DNA of 64,000 nt from an uncultured Bacteroidia bacterium (GTDB lineage: Bacteria; Bacteroidota; Bacteroidia; Bacteroidales; F082). Positions 28,197-63,123 of the stretch are shown here, in pieces; positions within the stretch are counted from its first letter, which is position 1; the number at the start of each line of letters is the position of its first letter. Under the pieces are notes generated by a model. It had not been told where the DNA came from and made no database searches. It saw only the letters and a list, made by a program, of their open reading frames with translations. Location of the stretch: NCBI GenBank assembly GCA_902801625.1, contig CADCJI010000006.1, positions 11,304 to 75,303 of the forward strand, given 5' to 3'. The position numbers were made by a program, and so were the translations under genes.

Positions 28197-30068
28197 ATGA
28201 AAAAACTTGTACTTTTCTTAGCAGGCTTATTCGTTTTCACAGCACTGCATGCTCAATGGGTCGACGACCCAACTACCAACACCTTCATCGCTAACAGCTC
28301 GGCAGACGCTGGTGAAGTCTATCTCTCCACCGATGAAGTCTCTGGCGATACTTATTTGCAATTCAACCAGATGCGCTCCAATGGTTGGGTACCAACCTTA
28401 CAGAGACTCACTTTTGAAGGCATTCCACAATGGGGTGACAACGGCATCACCATCACGGGGCAGACCCTTTCCTCATGGTCGGAAGGCGTTGCTATGGTCG
28501 CCACCAATGATGGCGGCGTGGTGAGCTGCTTCTCCAACGAAGCCGGACAATCTGTAGCCGTCAGGATCAATGCCGATGGCACTTTCCCATGGGGCGAGCA
28601 GGGCATCACCCTCTTTGGCGGACAAGGCGGCTCGCGCACCGAACTTCTCGCTGGAAACGACGGAGGCGTTTGGGCGCTCGGTACCGACTACAACAACACT
28701 TATTTGCAATATGTCAACGCCAATGGCACTTTAGGACCCGCCATCACCATGGGAGATGGCGAACACCAATATATGTTCGGCCTTATGGTACCCTCCGTTG
28801 ACGATAGAGTTTTGGTGGTCTTTGAAAAAGAGAACTGGGCGTACACCTATTATTATGAGAAATCCATTTATGTAGCCTGCTACACCCGTGAAGGCGAACA
28901 AATCGGTGATGAGACTCTACTCATGCTGCCACAAACTATCGGTGGCAGCTATTGCCATTATGTGGTTCCCGATGGAGAAGGCGGCGGCTATGCATACATC
29001 TGGCATCCTGCCATAGGAGGTGCATTCAACACTTATGTCTTCCACTTTGATGTAAATGGCATCTCCACCATCAGCGACCAGAATGGCATTCCCGTTCACT
29101 CTACTGACCCATCAAATTTCTATCTTAGTGCTTATGGCACCGTCGACCCCGTGAGCCACGACCTCATCCTCGCCTACGAACAAACTGATGCTTCAACCCA
29201 GTCACAAAGCAGAATCTACATGAACCGCATCACTGCAACTGGCGAGCGTGTGTGGGGCGAAGGCATTTTGGTTGCCGACAACGATGGTTCCAGCTATAGC
29301 GAAATAAAAGTCGATGCCTTCGAAGACGGCAGCGGTTTCTCCATCATCTACAAGAAAAGCAATAGCTACAGCGACGAAGTGGTGAATGCTAAGGGCTACG
29401 ACATGGAAGGCAACCAAATCTGGGCCAAATCCATGAGTTCGAGCCATTATCCCCGTGCCGTGTGCGATAATAGCACAGGCTTTCACATGGGACAAAATAT
29501 AGTGGCATGGGTGAACAGCAGCAATGGCGGCATTTACGGCCAAAACATCGGTCCCGACGGCAACATGGGTCCCATCGAACCACCCGTTCCGACCTGCCTC
29601 CCGCCTGAGAACCTTGAAGGCGATTATGTCTACGATATGGAAGAGCAACTATATGGCGTGCAGATCAGTTGGATAGCCCCCGATACACAACCGCTGCATT
29701 ATAACCTCTATCGTTACAGCGAAATCTACAAGGACGAAACCATCATCGAAGTGGCAGCTGACGCCACCTCCTATTTTGACGAAACCGGTATTGGAGCCTA
29801 CAAATACCAACTCACCGCCGTCTACGAGGACTGCGAATCCGACTTTGCCCTTACGCCCGAAGGAGAGAACCATGTCTATATCGAAGTCACTGGAATTGAG
29901 GAAAATACCGATAGCAGAATCGTCAATGTGTTGAATGTTTACAACATGACCGGCCAGCGCATTATGGTCAACGACATAAACGAGCTGAACACGGGCGTCT
30001 ACATCCTCCAAGGCTTGACAGAAGACGGCCGTTTGGTCAACCAAAAAGTGATGGTCGATAAAAAATAA
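28197..30068 (+). CDS. T9SS-sorted secreted protein, tandem paralogue 2
   Basis: Collinear with 26292-28172 (AQWVDDPTTNTFIAN.., INADGTFPWGEQG, IVAWVNSSNGGIYGQNIG, YKYQLTAVYEDCESDF). CTD: VNVLNVYNMTGQRIMVNDINELNTGVYILQGLTEDGRLVNQKVMV. Confidence 0.8.
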   Translation: MKKLVLFLAGLFVFTALHAQWVDDPTTNTFIANSSADAGEVYLSTDEVSGDTYLQFNQMRSNGWVPTLQRLTFEGIPQWGDNGITITGQTLSSWSEGVAMVATNDGGVVSCFSNEAGQSVAVRINADGTFPWGEQGITLFGGQGGSRTELLAGNDGGVWALGTDYNNTYLQYVNANGTLGPAITMGDGEHQYMFGLMVPSVDDRVLVVFEKENWAYTYYYEKSIYVACYTREGEQIGDETLLMLPQTIGGSYCHYVVPDGEGGGYAYIWHPAIGGAFNTYVFHFDVNGISTISDQNGIPVHSTDPSNFYLSAYGTVDPVSHDLILAYEQTDASTQSQSRIYMNRITATGERVWGEGILVADNDGSSYSEIKVDAFEDGSGFSIIYKKSNSYSDEVVNAKGYDMEGNQIWAKSMSSSHYPRAVCDNSTGFHMGQNIVAWVNSSNGGIYGQNIGPDGNMGPIEPPVPTCLPPENLEGDYVYDMEEQLYGVQISWIAPDTQPLHYNLYRYSEIYKDETIIEVAADATSYFDETGIGAYKYQLTAVYEDCESDFALTPEGENHVYIEVTGIEENTDSRIVNVLNVYNMTGQRIMVNDINELNTGVYILQGLTEDGRLVNQKVMVDKK

Positions 30069-51051: not shown

Positions 51052-52848
51052 ATGAACCTATTCCAACTCTTCAAAAACGTTAGCCCTTTTGTCAAGCCTT
51101 ATAAATGGCTGGTTTTCATTACTTTGATACTGACATTAATTGGCTCCCTAATGGCGCAGGTAAACGCCATTGTACTTGACTGGACTGTCGACCAGGTCAA
51201 CGGTTTGGTCACAGCTGGCGAACAGTGGGGCCAAGCCGCTGCTCACATCGTGATTATGATTTCGGTAGTATTGCTGGGCAAGGAAATCCTCTCGGCCTTC
51301 ATCACCTATGCGCAAAACTACTTCGGCGAACGAATGCGCATCTTCGTCAGTCGCGACTTGGCCCAAAGCGTCATCGAGAAGGTGCTCACCTTCAAGATGG
51401 CTTTTTTCAACACGGGCGACAACGCCACAGGCAAGCTCCAGGCCCGTATCGACCAAGGTGTCAGCTCGTTATCACGCACAGTTCAGAACTTCTTCATCGA
51501 CCTGTTGCCCTTGTTCACGAGTGCCCTTTTGGCTTTGATACTGATGTTCATTGCCAATGTGTATGTCGGCTTGGTGGCCTTGGCCATCGTGCCCGTCTAT
51601 TTCTGGATTACCTACCGACAGGCCCGTCGGCTCAAGGGCTGGCGTCGTGAGATGCGCGGCCATTTGGAGACCAAGAGCCAAGGCATCAAGAATATCATCG
51701 ACTCCATCAACGTCATCAAGAGTTTCAACCGAGAGAAGATCGAAGCCCAGAAACAGTTGGATATCCAAAATCAAGTGACTGAAAACCAAATGAAGACACG
51801 TAGTGTGGCGTTCTATTACAATGGCGTGAAGAGCTTCGTAAAGCAGGTGGGTACCGTGTTGGTCATCATCCTGACGGCCTACCTTGTATTAATTGGTTAT
51901 CCAGGCATGACTATCGGTAAAATCATGTACCACGTGATGCTTTTCAGCAACGTCATCGCACCCATCACACAGTTGCAGCGTATCTTCGACGACGTGAACG
52001 ACGCCTTGATTTATGCAGAGGGTTTCTTCAGCATCATCGATTCGAAGGAGGACGTGGAACCTTCAGGCAGTTACCGTCCCGAAAAGATTCACGGCAAGTT
52101 CGAAATCAAACATGTCGACTTCACCTATCCCAATGGCAACCAAGCTCTTTTCGATGTGAACATGACCATCGACCCAGGCAAGATTACTGCTTTGGTCGGA
52201 CTCTCTGGTGCAGGCAAGAGTACCATTGTCAACCTGTTGGATAAATTCTATGAGCCTCAAGTAGGCCAGATTCTGCTTGACGGTGTGGATTTGCGCGAAT
52301 ACGACACCCAGTACCTCCGCGAAAACATCGGTCTCGTGCTGCAGAAGAACCACATCTTCGACGGCACCATCGAGGAGAACATCCTTTACGGCAACCCCAA
52401 AGCCACCCACGAAGACGTGGTGGAAGCCGCCAAGAAGTCGCATCTCTACGACCAGGTGATGGAACTGCCGAAGCAGTTCAACAACAATGCCGCCGACCTT
52501 TCAGGCGGTCAGCAGCAACGTGTGGCCATCGCCCGCATGTTCCTCAAGAACCCGCCCATCATCTTCCTTGACGAGCCCACGGCCAGCCTCGATGCCATCG
52601 CCACCGAGCAAATCAAAAACAGCATCGACGCCATCAAGAAAGACCGCACCGTCATCATCATCTCGCACAGCATCTCACAGATCATCGACGCCGACTACAT
52701 CTATGCCCTACAGCAAGGCCGTGTTGAAGAGGACGGCGACCCCGACAGCATCTACAAGAAAGGCGGCATCTACAAAGACATCATCGACGCCTCGGCACGC
52801 AGCCTCAACATCGAGAAGATTGCCCGGACAATTGAAGACAAGAATTAA
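51052..52848 (+). CDS. ABC exporter, fused permease + ATPase (MsbA-like)
   Basis: Six N-terminal TM segments, Walker A GLSGAGKST, signature LSGGQQQRVAIAR, Walker B IIFLDEPT. Confidence 0.9.
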   Translation: MNLFQLFKNVSPFVKPYKWLVFITLILTLIGSLMAQVNAIVLDWTVDQVNGLVTAGEQWGQAAAHIVIMISVVLLGKEILSAFITYAQNYFGERMRIFVSRDLAQSVIEKVLTFKMAFFNTGDNATGKLQARIDQGVSSLSRTVQNFFIDLLPLFTSALLALILMFIANVYVGLVALAIVPVYFWITYRQARRLKGWRREMRGHLETKSQGIKNIIDSINVIKSFNREKIEAQKQLDIQNQVTENQMKTRSVAFYYNGVKSFVKQVGTVLVIILTAYLVLIGYPGMTIGKIMYHVMLFSNVIAPITQLQRIFDDVNDALIYAEGFFSIIDSKEDVEPSGSYRPEKIHGKFEIKHVDFTYPNGNQALFDVNMTIDPGKITALVGLSGAGKSTIVNLLDKFYEPQVGQILLDGVDLREYDTQYLRENIGLVLQKNHIFDGTIEENILYGNPKATHEDVVEAAKKSHLYDQVMELPKQFNNNAADLSGGQQQRVAIARMFLKNPPIIFLDEPTASLDAIATEQIKNSIDAIKKDRTVIIISHSISQIIDADYIYALQQGRVEEDGDPDSIYKKGGIYKDIIDASARSLNIEKIARTIEDKN

Positions 52849-52853
52849 CTCTA

Positions 52854-52887
52854 TAGAGACGCGATTGATCGCGTCTCTACATTTTTA
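52854..52887 (+). terminator. Rho-independent terminator
   Basis: tagagacgcgat / atcgcgtctcta 12-bp stem followed by ACATTTTT. Confidence 0.8.
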
Positions 52888-53023
52888 ATACATTTTTCTG
52901 ACGCATTTTTCTCAACCAATCCAAATATTTTCTATTTTAGCCGATTGTTTTTGAAGACGAATGTAATTCTTCGAATTTTAAATTTTGAATCTTTAAATCT
53001 TTTGAATCAACAAATAAGATAAT

Positions 53024-54970
53024 ATGAGCACCAACTTTGACCCACGCGCCAACTACGAGCTGACCAAGCAACAGGCCGGCTACGTCGAGCGCAAGAAAGC
53101 CACTCAGGAAGACTATGACCGCATAGGCTTCATGTCGGGACTGGAAGTGCACCAGCAGATCAAGACCAAAGAGAAGCTGTTCTGCCACTGTCCCGCCGGA
53201 CAATTCAACAAGTTTGAGGACTACGATGCCGAGCTGATCCGTCACATGCGCCCAACCCTTTCAGAGTTAGGCGAATATGACGGCACGGCCTTGATGGAGT
53301 TCAAGACGAAGAAGGAAATCGTCTACCGCATCAAGAACGGCACCGCCTGCACCTACGACATCGACGACACCCCGCCGTTCCCCATCAACCGCGAGGCCTT
53401 GCACAACGCCATCATCATCGCCCTGCGTTCGAACCTGAACATCGTGGGCGAAGTGCATATCACCCGTAAACAATACCTCGACGGCTCCATCCCGACGGGC
53501 TTCCAACGTACCGCCATCGTGGGCGTGGAAGGCCTGCTCAAACTGCCGAAGAAGGACATCCGCCTCATCCAGCTGAGCATCGAGGAGGACGCCTGCCGCG
53601 AAATCAGCGACATCGGTCACCGCCGTATCTATCAAACCGACCGTCTCGGCGTGCCGTTGATTGAGACCGTCACCTATCCCGACTGCAAGAATCCCGATGA
53701 GTTGCGCGAGACCTGCGAATACATCCGCTTCCTCGGCCGCAGCACGGGTTTGGTCCGCACGGGCATGGGCGCTGGTCGCCAAGACGTCAACGTGAGCTGC
53801 ACGGGTGGCACCCGCATCGAGTTGAAGGGTGTTCAACATGCCAAGTGGATCCCTGAATTGTCGCACAACGAGTGCTTCCGCCAGTGGTCGTTGGTGCAGT
53901 TGCAAGAGCGCCTCAACCGCGAGGTCGGCAAAGAAGGCTGGAAAGTGGAAGTGGCCGATGTGTCGTTCCCGACCGACTACCTGCCTATCCTCGACAATAA
54001 AGCCAAGGGCGGTGCCTTGAAACTCGTCAAGTTGCCGAAGTTCCGTGGCGTACTTTCGCACTTCACCCAACCTGGCAAGATGTTCGCCGACGAAATCGCC
54101 GACCGCCTGAAGGTCATCGCCTGCCTCGAGCGTCCCAACATGCTTCACGACGAGATGCTGGAACCCGTTTTGACCCACTCGCAATGGCATAAGCTGGCCA
54201 AGCGTGTCCATGCCACCGACGAAGATGCCCTCATCCTTGTTTGGGGTCCGCAAAACGACATGCCCACCGCCATCGAGACCATCGAAGAGCGTTGCCTCAT
54301 GGCCTTCGACGGCGTGCCGAAGGAGACCCGTAAGGCCATCTGCAATGGCATCACCATCTTCGAGCGTGTGCTCCCTGGTGCCGACCGTATGTATCCCGAT
54401 ACCGACTCGGCTCCCATCCCGCTCGACCCGGCTTTCATCAAGGCCCTGCGTGCCGAGATGCCTACCGAGATCATCGACCGTTACTACAAACTCAAGGAGT
54501 GGAACGTGCCGGAGGACTGCTTCCGTTACATCTTCGCGAAGAACTGGTTCCCCGCCATGGCCGAAGTCGTCGAGAAACTCGGCGTGGATGGCCGCACCGT
54601 GGGCCGCTTCGTCGGTATGAGACTCAAGCACCTGCTGGGCAAGAACGCTGCTTCGAAGTTCAACGGCGAGACCTTGTACAAACTCTTCGCTTTCCTGAAG
54701 GAGCAAGGTCTTGACTATCGTCTGGCTTGGAACATGGCTCCCGCTTTGGTGGAAGACGCCACGATGCCGATGGAGCAGGTTTTGGACAAGATCGGCTTCA
54801 AGCGTTATGCGAAAGACGACCTTTTGACCAAACTCGACAACCTTTGCGCTGGCTTCGCCCCAAAGAAGAAGTCCTGCACCGACCTCGACCGCATGAACTG
54901 GATCATGGGTCAGATGAAGGAAGCGATGGGCAACATCGAAATGAAAGAATTGGCTAACAACATCAAATAA
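53024..54970 (+). CDS. gatE: Archaeal-type Glu-tRNA(Gln) amidotransferase subunit E homologue
   Basis: GLEVHQQIKTKEKLFCHCP, MRPTLSELG, RKQYLDGSIPTGFQRT, LSIEEDACR, DRLGVPLIETVTYP and GRQDVNVSCTGGTRIELKGVQ parallel archaeal GatE motifs recalled from memory; 648 aa. Confidence 0.85.
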   Translation: MSTNFDPRANYELTKQQAGYVERKKATQEDYDRIGFMSGLEVHQQIKTKEKLFCHCPAGQFNKFEDYDAELIRHMRPTLSELGEYDGTALMEFKTKKEIVYRIKNGTACTYDIDDTPPFPINREALHNAIIIALRSNLNIVGEVHITRKQYLDGSIPTGFQRTAIVGVEGLLKLPKKDIRLIQLSIEEDACREISDIGHRRIYQTDRLGVPLIETVTYPDCKNPDELRETCEYIRFLGRSTGLVRTGMGAGRQDVNVSCTGGTRIELKGVQHAKWIPELSHNECFRQWSLVQLQERLNREVGKEGWKVEVADVSFPTDYLPILDNKAKGGALKLVKLPKFRGVLSHFTQPGKMFADEIADRLKVIACLERPNMLHDEMLEPVLTHSQWHKLAKRVHATDEDALILVWGPQNDMPTAIETIEERCLMAFDGVPKETRKAICNGITIFERVLPGADRMYPDTDSAPIPLDPAFIKALRAEMPTEIIDRYYKLKEWNVPEDCFRYIFAKNWFPAMAEVVEKLGVDGRTVGRFVGMRLKHLLGKNAASKFNGETLYKLFAFLKEQGLDYRLAWNMAPALVEDATMPMEQVLDKIGFKRYAKDDLLTKLDNLCAGFAPKKKSCTDLDRMNWIMGQMKEAMGNIEMKELANNIK

Positions 54971-54978
54971 AGAAGAAC

Positions 54979-56367
54979 ATGGCTGAAGATTTTTTCCAAG
55001 GATATTGGGGTGCCTCGCTTGAGGTGCTCAAGAAATACAACTGCCGCGTGTGGAGCCAGGCCGAGTGCCAGACCACGGGTGGCCTCTTCAAAGGCACGAT
55101 CCTGCCTCGAGCCGCCTTCCAGGACGACCAACATATCGTCATGAAGGTCAACACGGGCTACAACATCGGCGTCGACATCAGCACCATCACGGGCATGGTC
55201 GAGACCGACTACAAGAAAGCCAACTACCACATCCCCGAGAAGGAATTTCCATATACTGAGGGACTTCCGCACGTAAAGCTACTCGGTACGGGTGGCACCA
55301 TCGCCTCGCGCTTGGACTACCGTACAGGTGCTGTGATTCCCGCTTTCTCGCCAGGTGAGTTGTATGGCGCCGTGCCGGAGTTGGCCGACATCTGCAACCT
55401 CGACACCGAGAAGGTATTCGCCGTGTTTTCCGAGAACATGTCGCCCAAGGAATACATTGCCTTGGCCAAGAAGATTGGCGAGGAAATCCAGAACGGCATC
55501 GACGGCATCGTCATCGGCCACGGCACCGACACGCTGGCCCACACCGCCGCTGCCCTGACCTTCATGTGCCAGAACCTGCCTGTGCCGATTGTCTTGGTCG
55601 GCTCACAGCGTTCTTCCGACCGTCCATCATCCGACGCCGCCTTGAACCTCATGCATGCCATGACCGCTGCCGGTCACGGTGACGTGGCCGAGGTGATGGT
55701 CTGTATGTTTGGTCCCACCTCTGACGAGTACGGTTTCCTGCACCGTGGCACACGTGTACGTAAGATGCACTCTTCGTACCGTTCTACCTTCCGCACTATA
55801 GGCGACACGCCTGTCGCTACAGTCGACCGCAAGCGTGGCGTTGTGCCGATCAAGGAGGTCTACAACCACCGCCGCAACGACCGCGATGTAAAGATCATCC
55901 CAACCTTCGACGACCGCGTGGCCATCCTCTACTACTATCCCGGCATGAAGCCCGATGTGCTTGACGCACTGGTCGACAATGGCTATCAGGGCATCGTTTG
56001 GGACGGCACGGGCTTGGGTCACGTCAACCGTGGCATGTTCGACGCCATCCAGCGTGCCACCGACAAGGGTGTGCACCAGTACATGACTGTGCAGACCATC
56101 TGGGGCTATGCCCATATGTTCGTCTATGACACCGGCCGCGACCTGATGGACCGTGGCATCATCCCCGCACAGAACATGCTCGCCGAGACCGCCTACATCA
56201 AGTTGGGTTGGGCTTTGGGCCAAACCCATGACCGCGAAGAGGTGAAGAACATCATGCTCACTCCTGTGAACAGTGAAATCACCCCGAGAGAGCCTTACAA
56301 CGGCTACCTCGTCTACCAAGGCGGAGTGCCTGAGGTTGAAGAGTTTATCCGCAAGGTGCATAAATAA
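54979..56367 (+). CDS. gatD: Archaeal-type Glu-tRNA(Gln) amidotransferase subunit D homologue (asparaginase-fold glutaminase)
   Basis: The N-terminal domain contains VMKVNTGYNIGVDI. The asparaginase core contains LGTGGTIASRLDYRTGAV, GHGTDTLAHTAAAL and LVGSQRSSDRPSSDA. It starts 8 nt after the gatE stop. Confidence 0.85.
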   Translation: MAEDFFQGYWGASLEVLKKYNCRVWSQAECQTTGGLFKGTILPRAAFQDDQHIVMKVNTGYNIGVDISTITGMVETDYKKANYHIPEKEFPYTEGLPHVKLLGTGGTIASRLDYRTGAVIPAFSPGELYGAVPELADICNLDTEKVFAVFSENMSPKEYIALAKKIGEEIQNGIDGIVIGHGTDTLAHTAAALTFMCQNLPVPIVLVGSQRSSDRPSSDAALNLMHAMTAAGHGDVAEVMVCMFGPTSDEYGFLHRGTRVRKMHSSYRSTFRTIGDTPVATVDRKRGVVPIKEVYNHRRNDRDVKIIPTFDDRVAILYYYPGMKPDVLDALVDNGYQGIVWDGTGLGHVNRGMFDAIQRATDKGVHQYMTVQTIWGYAHMFVYDTGRDLMDRGIIPAQNMLAETAYIKLGWALGQTHDREEVKNIMLTPVNSEITPREPYNGYLVYQGGVPEVEEFIRKVHK

Positions 56368-56421
56368 TATAAGGTGCCGACATGTCCGGCATTTGCTACT
56401 CATATTAAATGTAATTAAACC

Positions 56422-58164
56422 ATGCCATTTTCTGACTTTAAAACCCTGAAGCGTTTGTTGAAATCAGACTTGAGTGCTCTACCCTTGATAAAAGTGGCTC
56501 TGCTGGGTGATACAGCAACGCAGTTTCTTGCCACAGCCATCCGAGGGACCGGTGTGGAGCGAGGCTATCATATTGACCTCTACGAGGCAGAATACGACCA
56601 AGTGGAAAGACAACTGCTTGACCCGACGAGTGAATTCTACGAGTTCAATGCAGACTTCATTATATTGTTCCAAAGTACGCACAAACTTGGCGAAAACCAC
56701 GCGATGCTCAGCTCGGAACAACAGACCACCTTGGCTGAGGACAGACTCAACTTCGTGGCCTCAATATGTTCCAATCCTGCCCTCGAAGGCAAAAAGATCA
56801 TCTATTTCAACTATCCTGAGATAGACGATGCCGTGTTTGGCAGCTATGCCAACCACGTGCCGCAATCGCTGACATGGCAAGTAAGGCGGCTGAATTGCGG
56901 ACTGATGGATTTGACGCAGCAGTACCCGAACCTCTTCATTTGCGATCTTGCAGCGCTGCAAAACAAGTTGGGACGCGATGCCATGTTTGCCGCCAATGTT
57001 TACACCAGCACAGAGATGGTGTTGAGCATGGATGTATTGCCCTATGTTGCGAGCCGAGTGATGGACATCATTTGTGCCGTAAAGGGACAATTCAAGAAAT
57101 GCCTCATTTTGGACCTTGACAACACGGTATGGGGTGGCGTGATTGGTGATGACGGACTTGAAGGCATCCAGCTAGGTCATGGACTAGGCATTGGCAAGGC
57201 CTTCACTGAGTTCCAGATGTGGGTCAAGAAGCTCAAGCAGCGTGGCATTATCATTTGCGTAGCCTCGAAGAACAATGAAGAGACTGCCAAGGAACCCTTT
57301 GAGAAGCATCCTGACATGGTGCTCAAGCTGGACGACATTGCTGTGTTCCAAGCCAATTGGGAGACCAAAGTCGACAATATACGTACCATTCAAAGCATTT
57401 TGAACATCAGCTTTGATAGCATGGTGTTCTTGGATGACAACCCCTTCGAACGGAATATTGTACGCGAAAACATCAAAGGCATCACCGTGCCTGAGTTGCC
57501 CGAAGACCCTGCGGATTACTTGGAATACCTTTATGGGCTGAATCTATTTGAAACCGCCAGCTACAGTTCTGCCGACAAGGACCGTACGAAGCAATATCAA
57601 GTGGAGGCTCAACGTGTGTCGCTGAGCAAGACCTTCACCAATGAAGCAGACTTCCTCAAATCATTGGATATGGTTTCTGTCGTAAGCGGTTTCACCAAAT
57701 TCAATACGCCCCGTGTCGCACAACTTACCCAAAGGAGCAACCAGTTTAATTTGCGTACTGTCCGATACACTGATGCCGACATCGAATCATTCGCATCGGA
57801 TACAGAAGTGATTGACCTGAGCTTCACCTTACAGGACAAGTTTGGCGACAATGGCTTGATCGCTGTCATCATCATGAAGCCGAAGGACAAAGAAACACTC
57901 TTTGTGGATACTTGGTTGATGAGCTGTAGGGTATTGAAACGTGGTGTTGAGAATTTCACTTTGAACACCATGGTGGAGATTGCCAAGTCAAAGGGATACA
58001 AGCGAATCATAGGAGAATACCTGCCAACGCCTAAGAATGGCATGGTGGCATTGCATTATCCAGAACTTGGTTTCAAACCCATAGAGGGCAGCCCAACTGC
58101 CCAATGGGTTCTCGATTTGGAGAACTACCAGCCCCGCGAGTGTTTTATTGTTGCTAATGAATAA
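56422..58164 (+). CDS. FkbH-like HAD-IIIC family protein
   Basis: HAD motif I LILDLDNTVWGGVIGDDGLEGIQLG, VASKNNEETA and FLDDNPFER, plus a C-terminal GNAT-like region; 580 aa. Confidence 0.75.
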   Translation: MPFSDFKTLKRLLKSDLSALPLIKVALLGDTATQFLATAIRGTGVERGYHIDLYEAEYDQVERQLLDPTSEFYEFNADFIILFQSTHKLGENHAMLSSEQQTTLAEDRLNFVASICSNPALEGKKIIYFNYPEIDDAVFGSYANHVPQSLTWQVRRLNCGLMDLTQQYPNLFICDLAALQNKLGRDAMFAANVYTSTEMVLSMDVLPYVASRVMDIICAVKGQFKKCLILDLDNTVWGGVIGDDGLEGIQLGHGLGIGKAFTEFQMWVKKLKQRGIIICVASKNNEETAKEPFEKHPDMVLKLDDIAVFQANWETKVDNIRTIQSILNISFDSMVFLDDNPFERNIVRENIKGITVPELPEDPADYLEYLYGLNLFETASYSSADKDRTKQYQVEAQRVSLSKTFTNEADFLKSLDMVSVVSGFTKFNTPRVAQLTQRSNQFNLRTVRYTDADIESFASDTEVIDLSFTLQDKFGDNGLIAVIIMKPKDKETLFVDTWLMSCRVLKRGVENFTLNTMVEIAKSKGYKRIIGEYLPTPKNGMVALHYPELGFKPIEGSPTAQWVLDLENYQPRECFIVANE

Positions 58165-58167
58165 GTT

Positions 58168-58590
58168 ATGACAATTGCCGAATTAGCAGAACAGACAGGG
58201 AAAATAGAACACACTTATCAGGTGACTCCTGAAGTGTACCATGCGTTCCAGTTATGCAGTGGCGACTTCAACCCGTTACACACCGACATGGCTTTTGCCC
58301 AAAGCAAAGGCTTTAACGATTGTGTGATGTACGGCAACATCTTGAATGCCTTTATCAGCCACTTTGTAGGGATGCTACTTCCGACAAAGGAGGTGATGAT
58401 TCAGAGCCAAGACATCAGTTTCCACAAGCCTGTGTTCATGAACGACAAAGTCGCCTTAGAGGCCACAGTGGATACTGTTTCCGAGGCTGTCGGCATCATT
58501 GAATATAAATTTAAATTCAGGCGCATAAGTGATGGCGTCAAGCCCGAGCTTGTCGCCAAAGGCCATGTGCAGATAGGATTATTAAAATGA
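58168..58590 (+). CDS. MaoC-like hotdog-fold dehydratase
   Basis: SGDFNPLHTD motif; 140 aa. Confidence 0.75.
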   Translation: MTIAELAEQTGKIEHTYQVTPEVYHAFQLCSGDFNPLHTDMAFAQSKGFNDCVMYGNILNAFISHFVGMLLPTKEVMIQSQDISFHKPVFMNDKVALEATVDTVSEAVGIIEYKFKFRRISDGVKPELVAKGHVQIGLLK

Positions 58591-59411
58591 TTGACAAAGA
58601 GTTAATTAATCAATTGGAGCAGCTTGCCAAAAAGATCCGGGTGGATATCATACGCACTGGATATTTGGCAGGCAAGAATGGTGCCCACTTTGGAGGCAGC
58701 CTCTCCCCTGTTGAGATATTGGCAGTGCTGTATTCCTGCTTTGTCTCCTTCGACAAAAACGATATGGAGCATCGTGACAGGGTCATCCTGAGTAAGGGTC
58801 ACGCCGCCTTGGCACACTACTGCACTTTGTATGAATGCGGAATCATGACCAAAGCAGACCTCGACTCTTTTGAGCAGAATGGCAGTGACATTGTCGCCCA
58901 TGCCAAACGGAACTTATCGAGAGGTTTGGATTTCTCTGGAGGCAGCCTAAGCCTTGGCACCTCTTATTCCGTTGGCGTTGCCCATGCCTGCAAGCGCAAA
59001 GGTCTTAACAACCACATATACACCCTCATCGGAGACGGTGAAATGAATGAAGGTCTGATTTGGGAAGCACTGATGTATGCTGGACACAACCATCTTGACA
59101 ATCTCACCGTCATTATAGACCATAACCACCTTCAGGCCGATGGTACTATCGAGGAAGTAATGAATACCGCCCCGCTTGAAGACAAACTGAAAGCCTTTGG
59201 ATTTGATGTGATTCAAGTGGATGGGCACTCCGTAAGCGAATTACACGAAGCCTTTAGTCAACGACCTAATGGCCGTCCAATGGCCATCATTGCAGAAACA
59301 GTGAAGGGCAAAGGCGTTTCGTTTATCGAAAACAAAGCCAAATGGCATCACAGCAGCCTAAACGAGGCTCGTTACCAAAAGGCGCTAAAAGATTTAGGAG
59401 AGGAGGTATAG
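58587..59411 (+). CDS. Transketolase, N-terminal (TPP-binding) subunit
   Basis: HFGGSLSPVEILAVLY, SKGHAALAHY, IGDGEMNEGLIWEA. It overlaps the hotdog gene by 4 nt. Confidence 0.85.
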   Translation: MIDKELINQLEQLAKKIRVDIIRTGYLAGKNGAHFGGSLSPVEILAVLYSCFVSFDKNDMEHRDRVILSKGHAALAHYCTLYECGIMTKADLDSFEQNGSDIVAHAKRNLSRGLDFSGGSLSLGTSYSVGVAHACKRKGLNNHIYTLIGDGEMNEGLIWEALMYAGHNHLDNLTVIIDHNHLQADGTIEEVMNTAPLEDKLKAFGFDVIQVDGHSVSELHEAFSQRPNGRPMAIIAETVKGKGVSFIENKAKWHHSSLNEARYQKALKDLGEEV

Positions 59412-59412
59412 A

Positions 59413-60378
59413 ATGGCTAATATGAATGTTCAACAATATGCTGGCTCCGGACAGGCTGCGGCCATATTTGGGATGTATTTGCCTGACCATATCGAGGAGT
59501 ACCCCAATGTACAAGTGCTCTCCGCCGACATGTCGGTGGCAGCCAGCCTTGACCGTTTTATTTATCAAAGCCCCGAAAAATTCACTGAATTAGGCATAGC
59601 TGAGCAAAATCTGGTAGGAATTTCTGCTGGCATGGCCTCAGAAGGCTATACATGTGTGGCTGTTGCCCAAGCTGCCTTTATTACTATGCGAGCCTACGAA
59701 ATGGATCGCCAGTATTTAGGCTATATGCAAAACAAGGTTATCCTTGTCGGTTTGAATTCCGGCTTCTATCTCCAATACTTTGGCAACACACACTACTGCA
59801 TAGAAGACCTTGCCATCATGCGCCAGATTCCTGGAATGACGGTCTTGTCTCCCGCAGATGCTGGTGAAGCCGTCATGGCCTTTGAGGCTGCATTAAATTG
59901 CCCAGGTCCGGTTTACATTCGACTCACAGGGGGCTCGCAAGCTCCTACGGTTTATCATGAGACTTGCCCGTTTACCATTGGCAAAAACAATATACTCCGT
60001 GAAGGTCAGGATGTCTGCCTCTTTACCACTGGTGCTTGTACGGGCTACTCCATCCAAGCCGCCGAAATCTTGTCTCAACAAGGCATTGAAACAAGGCTCG
60101 TGGATGTCCATTCCTTGAAACCATTTGACATCGAGTCTGTTAGAGAAGCCAAAAACCACAAACTGATTGTATCGGCAGAAGAACACAATATAGTTGGTGG
60201 TCTTGGCACTGCCATTGCAGACATTATTGCAGAAGAAGGTGGTTATCCACCTCTTTTGAAACTGGGTGTCAAAGACCGTTTCTCCAAGCCCGGTGATTAT
60301 GATTATGTGATGCAGCAGCACAGGCTCTCGCCTGAATTGATTGCAGAAGACATCAAAAACAAATTACAATCGTTATAA
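59413..60378 (+). CDS. Transketolase, C-terminal (pyrimidine-binding) subunit
   Basis: FTELGIAEQNLVGISAGMASEGY. It starts 1 nt after the upstream stop. Confidence 0.85.
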   Translation: MANMNVQQYAGSGQAAAIFGMYLPDHIEEYPNVQVLSADMSVAASLDRFIYQSPEKFTELGIAEQNLVGISAGMASEGYTCVAVAQAAFITMRAYEMDRQYLGYMQNKVILVGLNSGFYLQYFGNTHYCIEDLAIMRQIPGMTVLSPADAGEAVMAFEAALNCPGPVYIRLTGGSQAPTVYHETCPFTIGKNNILREGQDVCLFTTGACTGYSIQAAEILSQQGIETRLVDVHSLKPFDIESVREAKNHKLIVSAEEHNIVGGLGTAIADIIAEEGGYPPLLKLGVKDRFSKPGDYDYVMQQHRLSPELIAEDIKNKLQSL

Positions 60379-60406
60379 ATAAACAAGAATCAAAATATCT
60401 ATTGTT

Positions 60407-60649
60407 ATGGAAAGATCTGAAATTTACGAAAAACTCAACGAAATCTTTTGTGACGTGCTGGATTTAGACGAGGTACACCTTACCGATGCATCCGTTGCCG
60501 ACGACATCGAGGAATGGGACTCCCTGAGTCATATCCAGTTGATTGTGGCTATTGAAAAAGCCTTTGGAATCAAGTTCACTTCTCTTGAGATCATGAAGTG
60601 GAACAATGTGGGCGAGATGGTGAATTCAATCATTGCCAAAAAGCAATAA
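60407..60649 (+). CDS. Acyl/peptidyl carrier protein (DltC-sized, 80 aa)
   Basis: Phosphopantetheine attachment context EEWDSLSHIQLIVAIEKAFG. Confidence 0.8.
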   Translation: MERSEIYEKLNEIFCDVLDLDEVHLTDASVADDIEEWDSLSHIQLIVAIEKAFGIKFTSLEIMKWNNVGEMVNSIIAKKQ

Positions 60650-60652
60650 CCG

Positions 60653-62122
60653 ATGGTTATCAACTCTTTTAGGTTCTTAGCCTTTTTTGCAGTAGTCTTC
60701 TTGGTTTATTTCCTGCCGTGGATGCGACAGCGTCACACGCGGCAGAACTTATGGCTATTGCTTGCCAGTTATTTTTTCTATGGCTTCGTGGATTGGAAGA
60801 TGCTTCCAGTCCTTTTGGCCATTACGGTGGCGTTTTGGTTTTTGGGCGGATTCATCCGCAAGGCCATTGACCGAGGTAATGCGAAAGCGGCATCGCGGTT
60901 CACTACGTTAGGTGTCGTGTTGGGTATAGGACTCTTGTTTTACTTTAAATACCTGAACTTCTTTGCCGGTTCTTTTGCTAAACTACTTAATGCCATTGGA
61001 TTACAGGTCAATTGGTCCACGCTAAACATTGTCCTTCCCGTTGGTGTGAGTTTTTTCACTTTCAAACTCATCAGCTATGTGATTGAAATCCATCGAGAGA
61101 AGATCCAGCCCAGCGAGAACTTTCTGGAGTTTGCCACCTATATCGCCTTCTTCCCCACCATCATGGCAGGTCCTATCGACCGTCCTGGAAAGTTCCTTCC
61201 CCAGTTGCGCCAAGCCCACCAATTCAACTACAACTTGGCCATGGACGGCTGCCAGCAGATACTTTGGGGTATCTTCACCAAGATGGTCATAGCCGACAGT
61301 ATTGCAGTAATTACACATGACGCGTGGTCTCTTTATCCAGAAAAAACCTCTTGGTACCTAATTTACGCTGCCTTGTTATCACCAATACAAGTCTATGCTG
61401 ATTTTGACGGATATTCCAACATGGCCATTGGCGTGGGTAAGATTCTAGAATTCAACATCACCAAGAACTTTGACCATCCATTGCTAGCACGCAATGTGTC
61501 GGAATACTGGCGTCGTTGGCATATTTCCCTAACGGGTTGGATCACTGACTATGTGTTCATGCCGCTCAATGTCAGGTTCCGCAATTGGGGTAATTTAGGA
61601 ATTTTCCTCGCCATCAGCATCAACCTTATTGTGATTGGTATGTGGCACGGGGCGAATTGGACCTATGTCTTGTTCGGTGTTTACCACAGCCTGCTTTTCT
61701 TACCGCTCATACTTACGGGGAAGTTTGGAAAGAATAAAAAGCTCAAACCTGGCCGATGGGGTTGCATACAGTTTAAGGACTTTTTAGGGATGATTGGAAC
61801 CCATCTCCTGATGGCTGTGGGTCATATTATCATATTCTCCGCTGGAGTACCATCCATCATCCGGCTTTTCAAATGCATGGTAAATGGAGATTGGTCATTC
61901 GTCAATCCTTTCTCATTACTTTCGTGGTATTCCATTTTAGCTATTGTGGTACTATTGGTCTTGGAATGGTGTACAAGGAACAAAGAATTTGCCATACAAC
62001 GTGTGTCTAAAGATTACACGAACAAGACCTTTAGAATCGTATTCCTCGACATGTTGCTGGCTTTGGCCATTGTGATTTTTAGTGCGAGTGCTAACGCAGA
62101 GTTTGTTTATTTCCAATTCTAA
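60653..62122 (+). CDS. MBOAT-family membrane O-acyltransferase (DltB/AlgI-like)
   Basis: LPVGVSFFTFKLISYVIE, YWRRWHISLTGWITDYVFMPL, conserved His in GMWHGANW. It starts 3 nt after the carrier-protein stop. Confidence 0.85.
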   Translation: MVINSFRFLAFFAVVFLVYFLPWMRQRHTRQNLWLLLASYFFYGFVDWKMLPVLLAITVAFWFLGGFIRKAIDRGNAKAASRFTTLGVVLGIGLLFYFKYLNFFAGSFAKLLNAIGLQVNWSTLNIVLPVGVSFFTFKLISYVIEIHREKIQPSENFLEFATYIAFFPTIMAGPIDRPGKFLPQLRQAHQFNYNLAMDGCQQILWGIFTKMVIADSIAVITHDAWSLYPEKTSWYLIYAALLSPIQVYADFDGYSNMAIGVGKILEFNITKNFDHPLLARNVSEYWRRWHISLTGWITDYVFMPLNVRFRNWGNLGIFLAISINLIVIGMWHGANWTYVLFGVYHSLLFLPLILTGKFGKNKKLKPGRWGCIQFKDFLGMIGTHLLMAVGHIIIFSAGVPSIIRLFKCMVNGDWSFVNPFSLLSWYSILAIVVLLVLEWCTRNKEFAIQRVSKDYTNKTFRIVFLDMLLALAIVIFSASANAEFVYFQF

Positions 62123-62132
62123 TTCATTGCTT

Positions 62133-63068
62133 ATGAAAAGGTTTATCAAACTATTTTGTTTTTTCTGGCTGTTTCTCATTTTGGCTATTGCTTGCATTCG
62201 GATAGCATGGATTCTAGTGACACCGCGAATCATGGAAAGGAACGTCCTTGATAAGGATATACATACCATTGTTTTGGGTGGTTCGGTTGGGATGGCCGAT
62301 TGGAATGATAGCATTATCCATGGTTCGAAGAATCTCTGTGCTTCGGCAATGACTTTTGGTGGAGCACTGAACAATCTGAAATGGGCCACTGAATATAACG
62401 AAAATAAACCTGACACGGTTATACTCGCAGCAGGACTAGTGTCGGTGGCTTATTTTTTTGACGATGTAGATGTACCCGAGGCGCTGTTAAAAAGAGATGA
62501 AGAAAAAAGAAATATCTTAAACTATTCCGTTTTCTTCAATAACTATAAACAGCATATCGAATATTGGGAATACATACTTGTTTCTTTTCCCTACAAGAAC
62601 CTTGAGGCATACAAGGGCGTTGAAGGTAATTTTTCCACTGAAGATCATATTGAAATAAATCATCCACTGGCCTTTAATCAAATTAATACAGCAATTGAGC
62701 GGGCTCACGAATATGACAAACAAGGTAATATGTCTGAAGAATATCTTAAGACATATTTCACATATCAGCTCGATAATCTTCATAAAATAAAGGAGTATTG
62801 TGGTGCCCATCAGCAGACGCTTATTATCTTGAACACTCCCATGTACAAAATCTTAGATATGGCGAGTGACAAGGGTTATCGGCAATTGATATGTTCGGAG
62901 TTAGGAGATAGTACGCTTGTAGCAGATTACAGTCATTTCAAAGTACCTGATTCAACCTATTTTAGAGACCCTGAACATTTAAACACAAAAGGGGCTCAAT
63001 ATTTTGGGGAACATATTTCAAGAGAAGGTTTGCAATTGCAATATGCAATAGACTATTGTATGAATTAG
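62133..63068 (+). CDS. Membrane-anchored DltD/SGNH-like protein (putative extracytoplasmic acyl-transfer partner of the MBOAT)
   Basis: N-terminal TM anchor MKRFIKLFCFFWLFLILAIACI. HTIVLGGSVG is block-I-like and DPEHLNTKGAQYF is a block-V-like DxxH. This is a weak by-eye call. Confidence 0.4.
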   Translation: MKRFIKLFCFFWLFLILAIACIRIAWILVTPRIMERNVLDKDIHTIVLGGSVGMADWNDSIIHGSKNLCASAMTFGGALNNLKWATEYNENKPDTVILAAGLVSVAYFFDDVDVPEALLKRDEEKRNILNYSVFFNNYKQHIEYWEYILVSFPYKNLEAYKGVEGNFSTEDHIEINHPLAFNQINTAIERAHEYDKQGNMSEEYLKTYFTYQLDNLHKIKEYCGAHQQTLIILNTPMYKILDMASDKGYRQLICSELGDSTLVADYSHFKVPDSTYFRDPEHLNTKGAQYFGEHISREGLQLQYAIDYCMN

Positions 63069-63123
63069 CTTTGGGTCATATTGGTTGTTTTCTCTATTTT
63101 TGCTGACCCAAATGTAGACATAT

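Follow-up and report, generated by a model that had tools for sequence, protein, structure and literature searches.

A gatE-gatD operon in an uncultured Bacteroidales genome: a probable bacterial GatDE amidotransferase with remodelled tRNA-reading elements

The co-evolution of the amidotransferase GatDE with the archaeal tRNA(Gln), which has A1-U72 as its first base pair, is the standard explanation for the lack of glutaminyl-tRNA synthetase (GlnRS) in Archaea, and it underlies amidotransferase scenarios for the last universal common ancestor. Reviews of 2009, 2021, and 2022 state that GatDE is found only in Archaea, and bacteria usually make Gln-tRNA(Gln) and Asn-tRNA(Asn) through GatCAB. We describe here a gatE gene followed by a gatD gene (together gatED) in a 64,000-nucleotide stretch of DNA, hereafter the window, from an uncultured Bacteroidia bacterium (contig CADCJI010000006.1). 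We consider it probable that gatED is a self-contained operon for a working heterodimeric tRNA-dependent amidotransferase that belongs to an ancient bacterial clade, shows a Bacteroidota-specific remodelling of the elements that read the tRNA, and has neighbours unrelated to it. What is shown for it is family membership, a complete set of domains, catalytic residues that are intact in GatE and GatD alike, fixed gene pairing, and very strong purifying selection.

The best-described relatives are the archaeal GatDE enzymes of M. thermautotrophicus (2D6F) and P. abyssi (1ZQ1), with which the window pair shares the same two subunits, the catalytic residues, and a full-length collinear alignment. 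The architecture is also the same, with a cradle, an AspRS-like insertion, a helical domain, and a YqeY-like tail in GatE, and an N-terminal domain plus a type I asparaginase core in GatD. The window host, however, is a bacterium, identity to the archaeal proteins is about 30 to 34% for GatE (in structural alignments) and 42 to 45% for GatD, falling to 12 to 15% in the helical and tail region of GatE, and the archaeal GXXAXGX, RG(K/R), and VKRGLGT motifs are replaced or absent. The expected substrate would differ too, as a bacterial tRNA(Gln) has U1-A72 where the archaeal one has A1-U72 (PMC2330236). GatCAB (3IP4, 3H0L, 3AL0, 3KFU) is related through GatB, the paralogue of GatE, which has the cradle site, the helical domain, the YqeY tail, and the kinase/transamidase chemistry in common with it. 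In contrast to GatE, GatB lacks the AspRS-like insertion, is partnered by the amidase-family GatA and by GatC instead of an asparaginase-type GatD, and has a 3-10 turn with which U1-A72 is recognised, together with a Lys-rich motif in its tail (PMC2811023). The core of GatD (residues 96 to 435) resembles the type I L-asparaginases of the AnsA family, scoring 371 bits on TIGR00519 and having the same Thr and Thr-Asp-Lys set, but GatD possesses the extra GatD_N domain, adjoins gatE, and scores higher on the GatD models (497 bits).

Curated hidden Markov models, Pfam, and Protein Data Bank (PDB) matches identified full-length GatE and GatD, of a type so far characterised in Archaea alone, in this Bacteroidota genome, in agreement with the original prediction, whose open reading frame (ORF) coordinates, sizes, 8-nt gap, common gene direction, and quoted motifs were all recovered in the translations. 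The motifs are GLEVHQQ..KLFCHCP, RKQYLDGS..GFQRT, and GRQDVNVS..ELKGVQ in GatE and VMKVNTGYNIGVDI, TGGTIASRLDYRTGAV, HGTDT, and GSQRSSDRPSSDA in GatD, and the gap occupies positions 54971 to 54978. GatE reached 379.8 bits on TIGR00134 (cutoff, 319.55) and matched 2d6f_C among PDB sequences over its full length and collinearly (E = 2e-82). Pfam reported GatB_N and a weak GAD match, the latter at residues 327 to 411 with an E value of 1.9e-4, under the gathering score. This second region is an AspRS-like insertion domain that separates GatE from GatB; in an AlphaFold2 model its predicted local distance difference test (pLDDT) score was about 90 or higher across most of the domain, and Foldseek gave a weak match to the AspRS 4ah6_A (probability, 0.92). 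Models of GatB, the GatCAB subunit, gave 47 to 115 bits with cutoffs of 315 to 680, the best (114.5 against a cutoff of 338) aligning residues 121 to 300 only, and an assignment of the protein to GatB was rejected on these scores and on the presence of the insertion.

The N-terminal part of the cradle contains GLEvH (E41, H43), RKQ (R148 to Q150), GFQRT, EED (187 to 189), RLGvPLIE, RQDVNVS (252 to 258), ElKGV, and ExxRQ. In comparison with 2d6f_C, 1zq1_C, and three GatB structures, all the catalytic-pocket and Mg-binding motifs of the GatB/GatE family (GLEvH, RKq, EED, RxDxNxS, ExK, and RxYPxxD) are present, and the catalytic motif residues are invariant in 98 bacterial GatE sequences. The C-terminal third, from the helical domain onward, is strongly diverged in Bacteroidota yet homologous, and it is confidently modelled. 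Despite an identity of 11 to 17% between Bacteroidota GatE and GatE from outside Bacteroidota in this region, hhalign aligned it with the archaeal C-terminus over 164 collinear columns (probability, 98.6%; E = 8e-16), and its pLDDT was 84 to 97. The model of the whole protein (pLDDT, 82; predicted TM score, 0.78) had 1zq1_C and 2d6f as its top Foldseek matches (E of about 1e-37; TM score of 0.72 to 0.76, target normalised), followed by full-length GatB, of which 3ip4_B aligns over 655 columns. The model drops below a pLDDT of 50 only at residues 52 to 59, 72 to 99, 106 to 117, 151 to 159, 190 to 208, and 451 to 459 (about positions 53177 to 54400), segments that overlap the most invariant motifs (RHMRPTLSELGEYDGTALMEF, LDGSIPTGF, CREISDIGH, and PGADRMYPD). 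We presume these segments to be loops of the active site, ordered only once GatD, tRNA, or nucleotide is bound.

GatD was identified with wide margins, at 497.3 bits on TIGR02153 (cutoff, 324) and 493 bits on NF003217 (cutoff, 310). Three Pfam domains scored above their cutoffs, namely, PF18195 GatD_N (42 bits, residues 34 to 70), PF00710 Asparaginase N (193 bits, residues 99 to 285), and PF17763 Asparaginase C (114 bits, residues 313 to 426), and the PDB sequence 1zq1_A matched over the full length (E = 1e-112). The catalytic residues T107 (in GTGGT), T183-D184 (HGTDT), and K262 (VRKMH) align with those of GatD from P. abyssi and M. thermautotrophicus. The catalytic interpretation of the original prediction had been made dependent on this point, and the key residues are indeed present in both subunits on proper alignment.

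As members of this family are understood (PMC2330236), GatD, a type-I-asparaginase-like glutaminase, would release ammonia from Gln or Asn, which would be channelled from GatD to GatE. GatE would bind the mischarged tRNA(Gln), phosphorylate the glutamate that it carries at the side-chain carboxylate, and amidate the activated intermediate to yield Gln-tRNA(Gln), with the Glu-tRNA(Gln) substrate probably supplied by a non-discriminating GluRS. Judged by sequence, Gln-tRNA(Gln) would be the most likely product and its supply the most likely physiological role. By analogy, the two subunits may form an alpha2-beta2 assembly. The features of the locus are collected in Table 1.

TABLE 1 Features of the gatED region, in window positions
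Feature	Positions	Strand	Details
Intrinsic terminator of the MsbA-like ABC transporter gene (51052-52848)	52854-52879	+	11-bp stem with 6 GC pairs, then a T-run
gatE leader	52880-53023	+	AT-rich, 144 nt; presumed promoter region
gatE	53024-54970	+	648 aa, ATG start; tRNA-dependent kinase/transamidase subunit
GatE cradle (catalytic) domain, N-terminal part, residues ~30-300	53111-53923	+	Alignment with archaeal GatE and PDB GatB
GatE cradle loop V244-G251 (VRTGMGAG)	53753-53776	+	Alignment; loop role from PMC2811023
GatE AspRS-like (GAD-like) insertion domain, residues ~301-425	53924-54298	+	Pfam GAD; collinear with 2d6f_C
GatE cradle domain, C-terminal part, residues ~426-475, with GVPxETR and RMYPDTD motif	54299-54448	+	Alignment, invariant columns
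GatE helical domain and YqeY-like tail, residues 476-648	54449-54967	+	hhalign, AlphaFold2 model
GatE tail motif N625-I638 (NWIMGQMKEAMGNI)	54896-54937	+	Bacteroidota form of the D-loop pocket motif
gatD	54979-56367	+	462 aa, ATG start; asparaginase-type glutaminase subunit
Imperfect hairpin 3' of gatD	56375-56391	+	-9.8 kcal/mol, z = -0.37 versus shuffles; poor T-tract

Both genes travel together. gatE and gatD adjoin, in this order and on the same strand, in 66 of the 80 related loci compared, and 4 more have them with gaps of 229 to 317 nt; the same order is found in loci L083 to L086 and on two circular bacterial contigs, one of 5.14 Mb (where the neighbours are GldB, LytTR, and outer membrane protein genes) and one of 5.98 Mb (SecA, sigma-70, and RND genes). 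A scan of GTDB with one genome per species found bacterial-type GatE in at least 593 species genomes. The best 80 of these are metagenome-assembled genomes (MAGs) of Bacteroidales, Lentimicrobiaceae, Salinivirgaceae, Prolixibacteraceae, and Marinilabiliales, with a few Ignavibacteriaceae or Chlorobiota labels, and come from rumen, digesters, sediments, and groundwater. Two rumen MAGs, RUG245 and RUG382 ("uncultured Bacteroidales"), have a GatE that shares 99% identity with the window protein. Among the best 120 database matches per subunit, identities are 60 to 96% for GatE and 77 to 89% for GatD, and those with names are Bacteroidales, Bacteroidia, Lentimicrobium, and similar, automatically annotated as GatE or GatD. 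A search of 1.84 billion cluster representatives added a second tier of about 35 full-length GatE sequences (42 to 52% identity), whose named members are all bacterial (Deltaproteobacteria, CSSED10-310, Calditrichia, KSB1, Krumholzibacteria, Latescibacteria, Aminicenantes, Desulfaltia, and a Clostridiales MAG). The bacterial GatDE clade includes many Bacteroidales families and several other phyla, mostly anaerobic and sediment associated.

The original prediction had started from the premise that GatDE is an archaeal enzyme, which does not survive the finding of the pair in at least 593 bacterial species genomes; "archaea-only" is a taxonomic generalisation and not a biochemical definition. 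The proteins already bear the names GatD and GatE in public databases (NCBI and JGI automatic annotation), and what is new is a true GatDE in another domain of life with remodelled tRNA recognition. We found no description of bacterial GatDE in open-access papers and preprints, and a report in a subscription journal is possible.

As most of the carriers are MAGs, the bacterial pair could be thought an artefact of archaeal contigs binned wrongly or of chimeric assembly. We give this next to no credence: mis-binned archaeal DNA is excluded by the presence of the pair on multi-megabase circular bacterial contigs, the neighbours in the 80 loci are bacterial envelope genes, and in the window the pair is flanked on both sides within 64 contiguous kb of Bacteroidota genes. 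The rest of the window codes for UvrA, gingipain-type C25 peptidases, a protein with a type IX secretion system (T9SS) tail, RsmG, LplA, MiaB/RimO-type enzymes, PagL, and MazG. As the original prediction held, the host of gatED is a genuine Bacteroidota chromosome.

Some loci show departures from the usual arrangement. Three rumen Bacteroidales MAGs have one or two genes for T9SS-sorted proteins (Por_Secre_tail) between gatE and gatD (L006, 1910 to 3217; L011, 6958 to 9388; L014, 12087 to 16556), which split the pair by 1.6 to 4.8 kb and leave both genes intact. In MAG Spi319_bin22 (L048, 9679 to 12380), gatE is followed by a methyltransferase gene of the PEMT/ICMT family, and gatD is absent within 9 kb downstream; this is the sole locus without the partner despite room on the contig. 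MAG Tb.RUG.400 (JAEETH01) has a gatE on each of two contigs (L006 and L007), 98% and 97% identical to that of the window, which suggests either that two strains were binned together or that the operon is duplicated.

The neighbour-joining tree built from 125 full-length GatE representatives is divided with a bootstrap of 100 into 45 bacterial sequences and 80 others, which are archaeal wherever labelled (Heimdall-, Thor-, Loki-, Hod-, and Odinarchaeota, Thermoprotei, or "archaeon"). Within the bacterial side, the Bacteroidota form a subclade (bootstrap, 99) that lies nested amid the rest. When the tree was rooted with GatB, using three partial GatB PDB sequences as the outgroup, the bacterial clade was monophyletic in 78% of replicates and the archaeal set in 8%. 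The GatE proteins of M. thermautotrophicus (2d6f_C, Methanobacteriales) and P. abyssi (Thermococcales) lie in a distant main clade of 72 sequences. GatD identities are congruent with this tree, as the window protein is 79% identical to another Bacteroidota GatD, 62% to a bacterial GatD from outside Bacteroidota, 48% to that of Lokiarchaeum, and 34 to 45% to those of other archaea. The remaining bacterial enzymes (from Aminicenantes, Latescibacteria, KSB1, Calditrichia, Krumholzibacteria, and Desulfobacterota MAGs) share with the window branch the bootstrap-100 clade, the operon order, the loss of GXXAXGX, and 58% identity in the cradle domain; they differ in that most retain the RG(K/R) tail and a YqeY domain detectable by Pfam, whereas the Bacteroidota subclade has NWIMGQ...GN(I/V).

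The closest archaeal sequences, by distance and by tree position, are those of the Asgard group (Lokiarchaeum ossiferum and Thor-, Heimdall-, Hod-, and Odinarchaeota), the GatD of Lokiarchaeum being the nearest archaeal GatD. Gene order points the same way in a small sample of five archaeal genomes: gatE precedes gatD with a short spacer in both Asgard genomes examined (Lokiarchaeum and one Thorarchaeote), as in bacteria, while the other three have gatD before gatE (Thermoprotei), a gatE beside an AspRS gene, and divergent genes, respectively. A Heimdallarchaeota GatE (P0283) carries the bacterial-clade signatures RHMRPTLSELGEYD and RKQYLDGSIPTGFQRT. The bootstrap-100 split nevertheless groups Asgard GatE with the archaeal sequences; Asgard GatE has a weakly supported sister relationship to the bacterial clade and differs in its motifs, as Heimdall has the canonical GXXAXGX and Thor part of it, and Heimdall, Thor, and Odin retain the RGK tail. 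As a separate observation, P0283 is intermediate in sequence between the bacterial and archaeal GatE groups. These comparisons point to an ancient exchange of the whole gatE-gatD operon between the domains, and the affinity is with Asgard-like lineages rather than methanogens; as the placement within Archaea is weakly supported, the transfer may have gone either way. The inter-domain transfer proposed in the original prediction is thus borne out as a real and ancient relationship, but not with a recent source among gut or rumen methanogens.

That methanogen source was a natural thought, since the host lives in the rumen and the pair has the highest GC content (0.57) and the highest GC content at third codon positions (GC3; 0.75 to 0.79, z = 1.6 to 1.9) of the 46 window ORFs. 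We nonetheless find a recent acquisition from rumen or gut methanogens very improbable. The Methanobacteriales protein 2d6f_C is about 30% identical (structural alignment) and sits in the distant archaeal clade, and the nearest homologues are in hundreds of bacterial genomes at 60 to 99% identity. The window pair belongs instead to an old Bacteroidota clade (bootstrap, 99) that is widespread and conserves its synteny, inside the bootstrap-100 bacterial clade, a placement with which the original prediction had said its transfer idea would fail. Comparison of base composition with the neighbours, another check proposed there, gave no foreign signal either, because gatED GC3 follows that of the flanking genes (r = 0.95, slope of 1.22, 67 loci, host range of 0.18 to 0.76); foreign base composition as a sign of recent transfer was accordingly rejected, and the GC bump is amplified host codon bias. 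Upstream, a block of LptD-like, AmiC-SPOR, MlaD, and OstA-like genes recurs across families and over the 60 to 99% identity range, and downstream, the methylmalonyl-CoA epimerase and decarboxylase genes (mce-mmdA-oadG-BCCP-oadB) do the same. We found no plasmid or phage copy of the gene, with the single exception of a haloarchaeal replicon of about 1 Mb. gatED has been resident in Bacteroidales long enough to acquire host base composition and housekeeping synteny, and within the bacterial GatDE clade the window pair is an ordinary member, inherited vertically. The high GC3 of both genes also explains two antisense shadow ORFs on the minus strand, at 53267 to 54706 (479 aa) over gatE and at 55627 to 56403 (258 aa) over gatD, an effect by which a naive ORF caller overlooked gatE or gatD in a few related loci.

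The differences from the archaeal enzyme are concentrated in elements that have been assigned roles in tRNA recognition, namely, the cradle loop, the D-loop pocket of the tail, and the GXXAXGX motif, which has been implicated in the rejection of Asp-tRNA(Asn) (PMC2811023). The basic cradle loop beside the first base pair is VKRGLGT in Archaea and VRTG(M/I)GAG in the window and Bacteroidota GatE, a change that may have a consequence for function. GXXAXGX is missing across the whole bacterial clade, where the archaeal GMGAMGP type (GQRALGK in Heimdall) has become ..DRMNW in the window and.AR.R(Y/F) in other bacteria. In the tail, the archaeal D-loop pocket motif MG..M...RG(K/R)(A/I)(D/N)(G/P) corresponds to NWIMGQMKEAMGNI in the window, with M628, G629, and G636 kept and the basic residues replaced. 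By simple regular expressions backed by the alignment, the Bacteroidota tail, NWIMGQ...GN(I/V), contains GN[IVLMA] in 75 of 78 sequences, and [RK]G[RK] occurs in 94 of 118 other bacterial and 58 of 80 archaeal GatE sequences. As tRNA(Gln) has U1-A72 for its first base pair in bacteria and A1-U72 in Archaea (PMC2330236), the changes in the cradle loop, GXXAXGX, and the tail pocket are most simply read as an adaptation to the bacterial tRNA(Gln).

The same changes could instead mean that specificity itself has shifted, with GatDE chemistry acting on Asp-tRNA(Asn), alone or together with Glu-tRNA(Gln), for tRNA-dependent asparagine synthesis as in GatCAB. The Bacteroidota tail lacks the RG(K/R) residues, bacterial tRNA(Gln) and tRNA(Asn) both have U1-A72, so that a GatE reading this pair could accept both, and some cultured Bacteroidales, P. 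gingivalis and Bacteroidales bacterium CF among them, have neither asnA nor asnB (Table S1 of PMC4206432). Against this, the catalytic cradle shows 84% identity across the Bacteroidota clade with all the GatE-type residues kept, the cultured Bacteroidales possess AsnRS, and the argument from motifs is indirect. We regard such a shift as quite unlikely. The alternative offered in the original prediction, recruitment to another amidation reaction, is neither favoured nor dismissed by these data, for the catalytic residues are all intact but the tRNA-recognition elements are altered.

How the enzyme relates to the other routes of the host was approached through its companion genes. The window and the 80 loci (about 1.3 Mb) were searched by tblastn, with E. 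coli GlnRS, the GatE cradle, and the amidase signature as queries, and glnS, gltX, and gatB were not found, a result that is uninformative as about 0.5 matches per gene are expected in this amount of DNA. No tRNA gene is present in the window, and no tRNA-Gln gene was found in the 60 loci scanned. In a survey of 2014, Cytophagia have GatCAB without GlnRS (PMC4206432). The idea that Bacteroides encodes GatCAB was dropped, as Table S1 of that survey contradicts it.

Selection on the pair is strong. The ratio of nonsynonymous to synonymous divergence (dN/dS) is 0.03 to 0.09 for gatE and 0.01 to 0.09 for gatD, with 0.05 to 0.13 in neighbouring genes, and synonymous divergence (dS) is 2 to 5 times lower than in the neighbours, values that fit a highly expressed core gene. 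This bears on the suggestion that GatDE works alongside GlnRS, as a redundant or conditional second route to Gln-tRNA(Gln) or as a proofreader of mischarged Glu-tRNA(Gln). In the 2014 survey, glnS is present in each of the eight cultured Bacteroidales genera, and the coexistence of GlnRS, AsnRS, and an amidotransferase is documented in 68 genera for GatCAB. Low dN/dS and dS and the top GC3 in the window, however, are typical of a highly expressed core gene and not of a backup, the pair has been retained in at least 593 species, and the surveyed genera are from cultured, host-associated families, none of which is named among the organism-labelled GatDE matches. A second route of this kind seems to us unlikely. 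A bolder proposal, which we offer tentatively, is that GatDE could be the sole route to Gln-tRNA(Gln), in place of GlnRS and GatCAB, in anaerobic Bacteroidales, the FCB group, and sediment phyla, after an old exchange of gatE-gatD with Asgard, and with its elements re-engineered for tRNA(Gln) with U1-A72 or for tRNA(Asn) too.

Several points weigh against a working GatDE that makes Gln-tRNA(Gln) in this clade. The same eight cultured Bacteroidales genera all have GlnRS and AsnRS and lack GatCAB (PMC4206432), and if GlnRS is also present in the window host, the canonical role of GatDE would be redundant there. The elements of tRNA recognition differ from those of the characterised archaeal enzyme, with GXXAXGX gone and the basic tail motif lost, so that substrate specificity may differ as well. 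GatE scores 434.2 bits on NF003107 over residues 28 to 644, slightly under the cutoff of 456, and Pfam found no YqeY domain (PF02637) in it. The taxon labels derive mostly from MAGs, the trees were built from cluster representatives by neighbour joining on Kimura-corrected distances, and the bacterial clade stands beside the Asgard sequences at a bootstrap of 14 to 21% when rooted with GatB. Low dS, finally, could come partly from recent recombination among rumen strains and not from codon bias.

The limits of the unit were examined in the window and in its relatives. On the left, gatED is delimited by the terminator of the upstream ABC transporter gene. A promoter scan of the gatE leader found no sigma-70-type match, the promoters of Bacteroidota being outside the coverage of that scan, and an Rfam scan of the gatED region, leader included, gave no family match. 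In close relatives, the space between the ABC transporter gene and gatE is a variable insertion site: relatives with an identical GatD have in it a 285-aa ORF, a CotH gene, or an AraC-type gene plus a 636-aa gene, and in L001 to L003 the site holds a 253-aa gene. On the right, the original prediction had correctly placed a weak hairpin and then a carrier-protein/MBOAT cluster from 56422; the hairpin is not convincing as a terminator and lies at the right limit of the gatED unit. At least 20 rumen-metagenome contigs carry an identical GatD, and among them are two wholly different right flanks and four different inserts in the space between the ABC transporter gene and gatE. The unit is bracketed by hot spots of rearrangement and insertion, and, taken with its 2- to 5-fold lower dS, this may mean that the operon recombines among related rumen lineages.

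The downstream cluster starts with an FkbH gene 54 nt 3' of gatD on the same strand and continues with genes for a MaoC dehydratase, a split transketolase, an acyl carrier protein (ACP), an MBOAT, an unknown protein of 313 to 328 aa, a second MBOAT, and an unknown 335-aa protein, spanning 56422 to 63888 and beyond in the window. The cluster is about 9.4 kb long and is inserted between gatD and the methylmalonyl-CoA epimerase gene; in L092 (11444 to 20612), it ends just 5' of that gene, the usual neighbour. With such a short gap, a common strand, and no convincing terminator in between, one might couple GatDE to this cluster, for example, for the amidation of a carrier-bound or cell-surface substrate. 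The original prediction had been cautious, stating that no functional link could be demonstrated, and the link is now refuted because an identical GatD occurs in strains without the cluster. In L090, L091, and L093, a 100% identical GatD is followed by MntP, Endonuclease_1, CorA, and GldD, relatives at 95 to 99% identity have yet other neighbours, and only the window, L001, and L092 carry the cluster 3' of gatD. Its GC content (0.38 to 0.48) contrasts with the 0.57 of gatED, and gatD is the only invariant partner of gatE across the clade; the 80 loci show no translation-related gene as a conserved neighbour, and envelope and methylmalonyl-CoA decarboxylase genes recur instead. Functional coupling is thus most improbable, and the cluster is an unrelated strain-specific island. 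As for the island itself, it looks like a system that would make a glyceryl- or glycolyl-ACP unit and O-acylate a surface polymer in the manner of DltB.

A monophyletic and strongly selected GatDE that is shared by hundreds of bacterial species, abundant rumen Bacteroidales among them, means that the taxonomic rule is wrong, and it adds a third route to Gln-tRNA to a phylum that is already a mosaic of GlnRS users and GatCAB users. The visible changes in its recognition elements make the first-base-pair and D-loop determinants directly testable, and the Asgard affinity with the shared operon order offers a clean case for an ancient exchange of a core translation component between archaea and bacteria. 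If GatDE were indeed the sole route in these bacteria, it would cease to be an archaeal signature enzyme, and the clade would be a natural experiment on the co-evolution of GatDE and tRNA(Gln).

Elsewhere in the window, two adjacent ORFs of about 625 aa (26292 to 28172 and 28197 to 30068) lie between an MFS transporter gene and lplA. Both are essentially without a Pfam match, the second having a marginal match to the RGI_lyase beta-sheet family. The window also codes for two tandem gingipain-family proteases (Peptidase_C25; 2784 to 5339 and 5366 to 7903) with a propeptide and an Ig-like C-terminal domain. Both end in a type I dockerin (PF00404, E of about 1e-9), which is unusual for a C25 protease of Bacteroidales and hints that this rumen organism displays them on its surface by means of cohesins.

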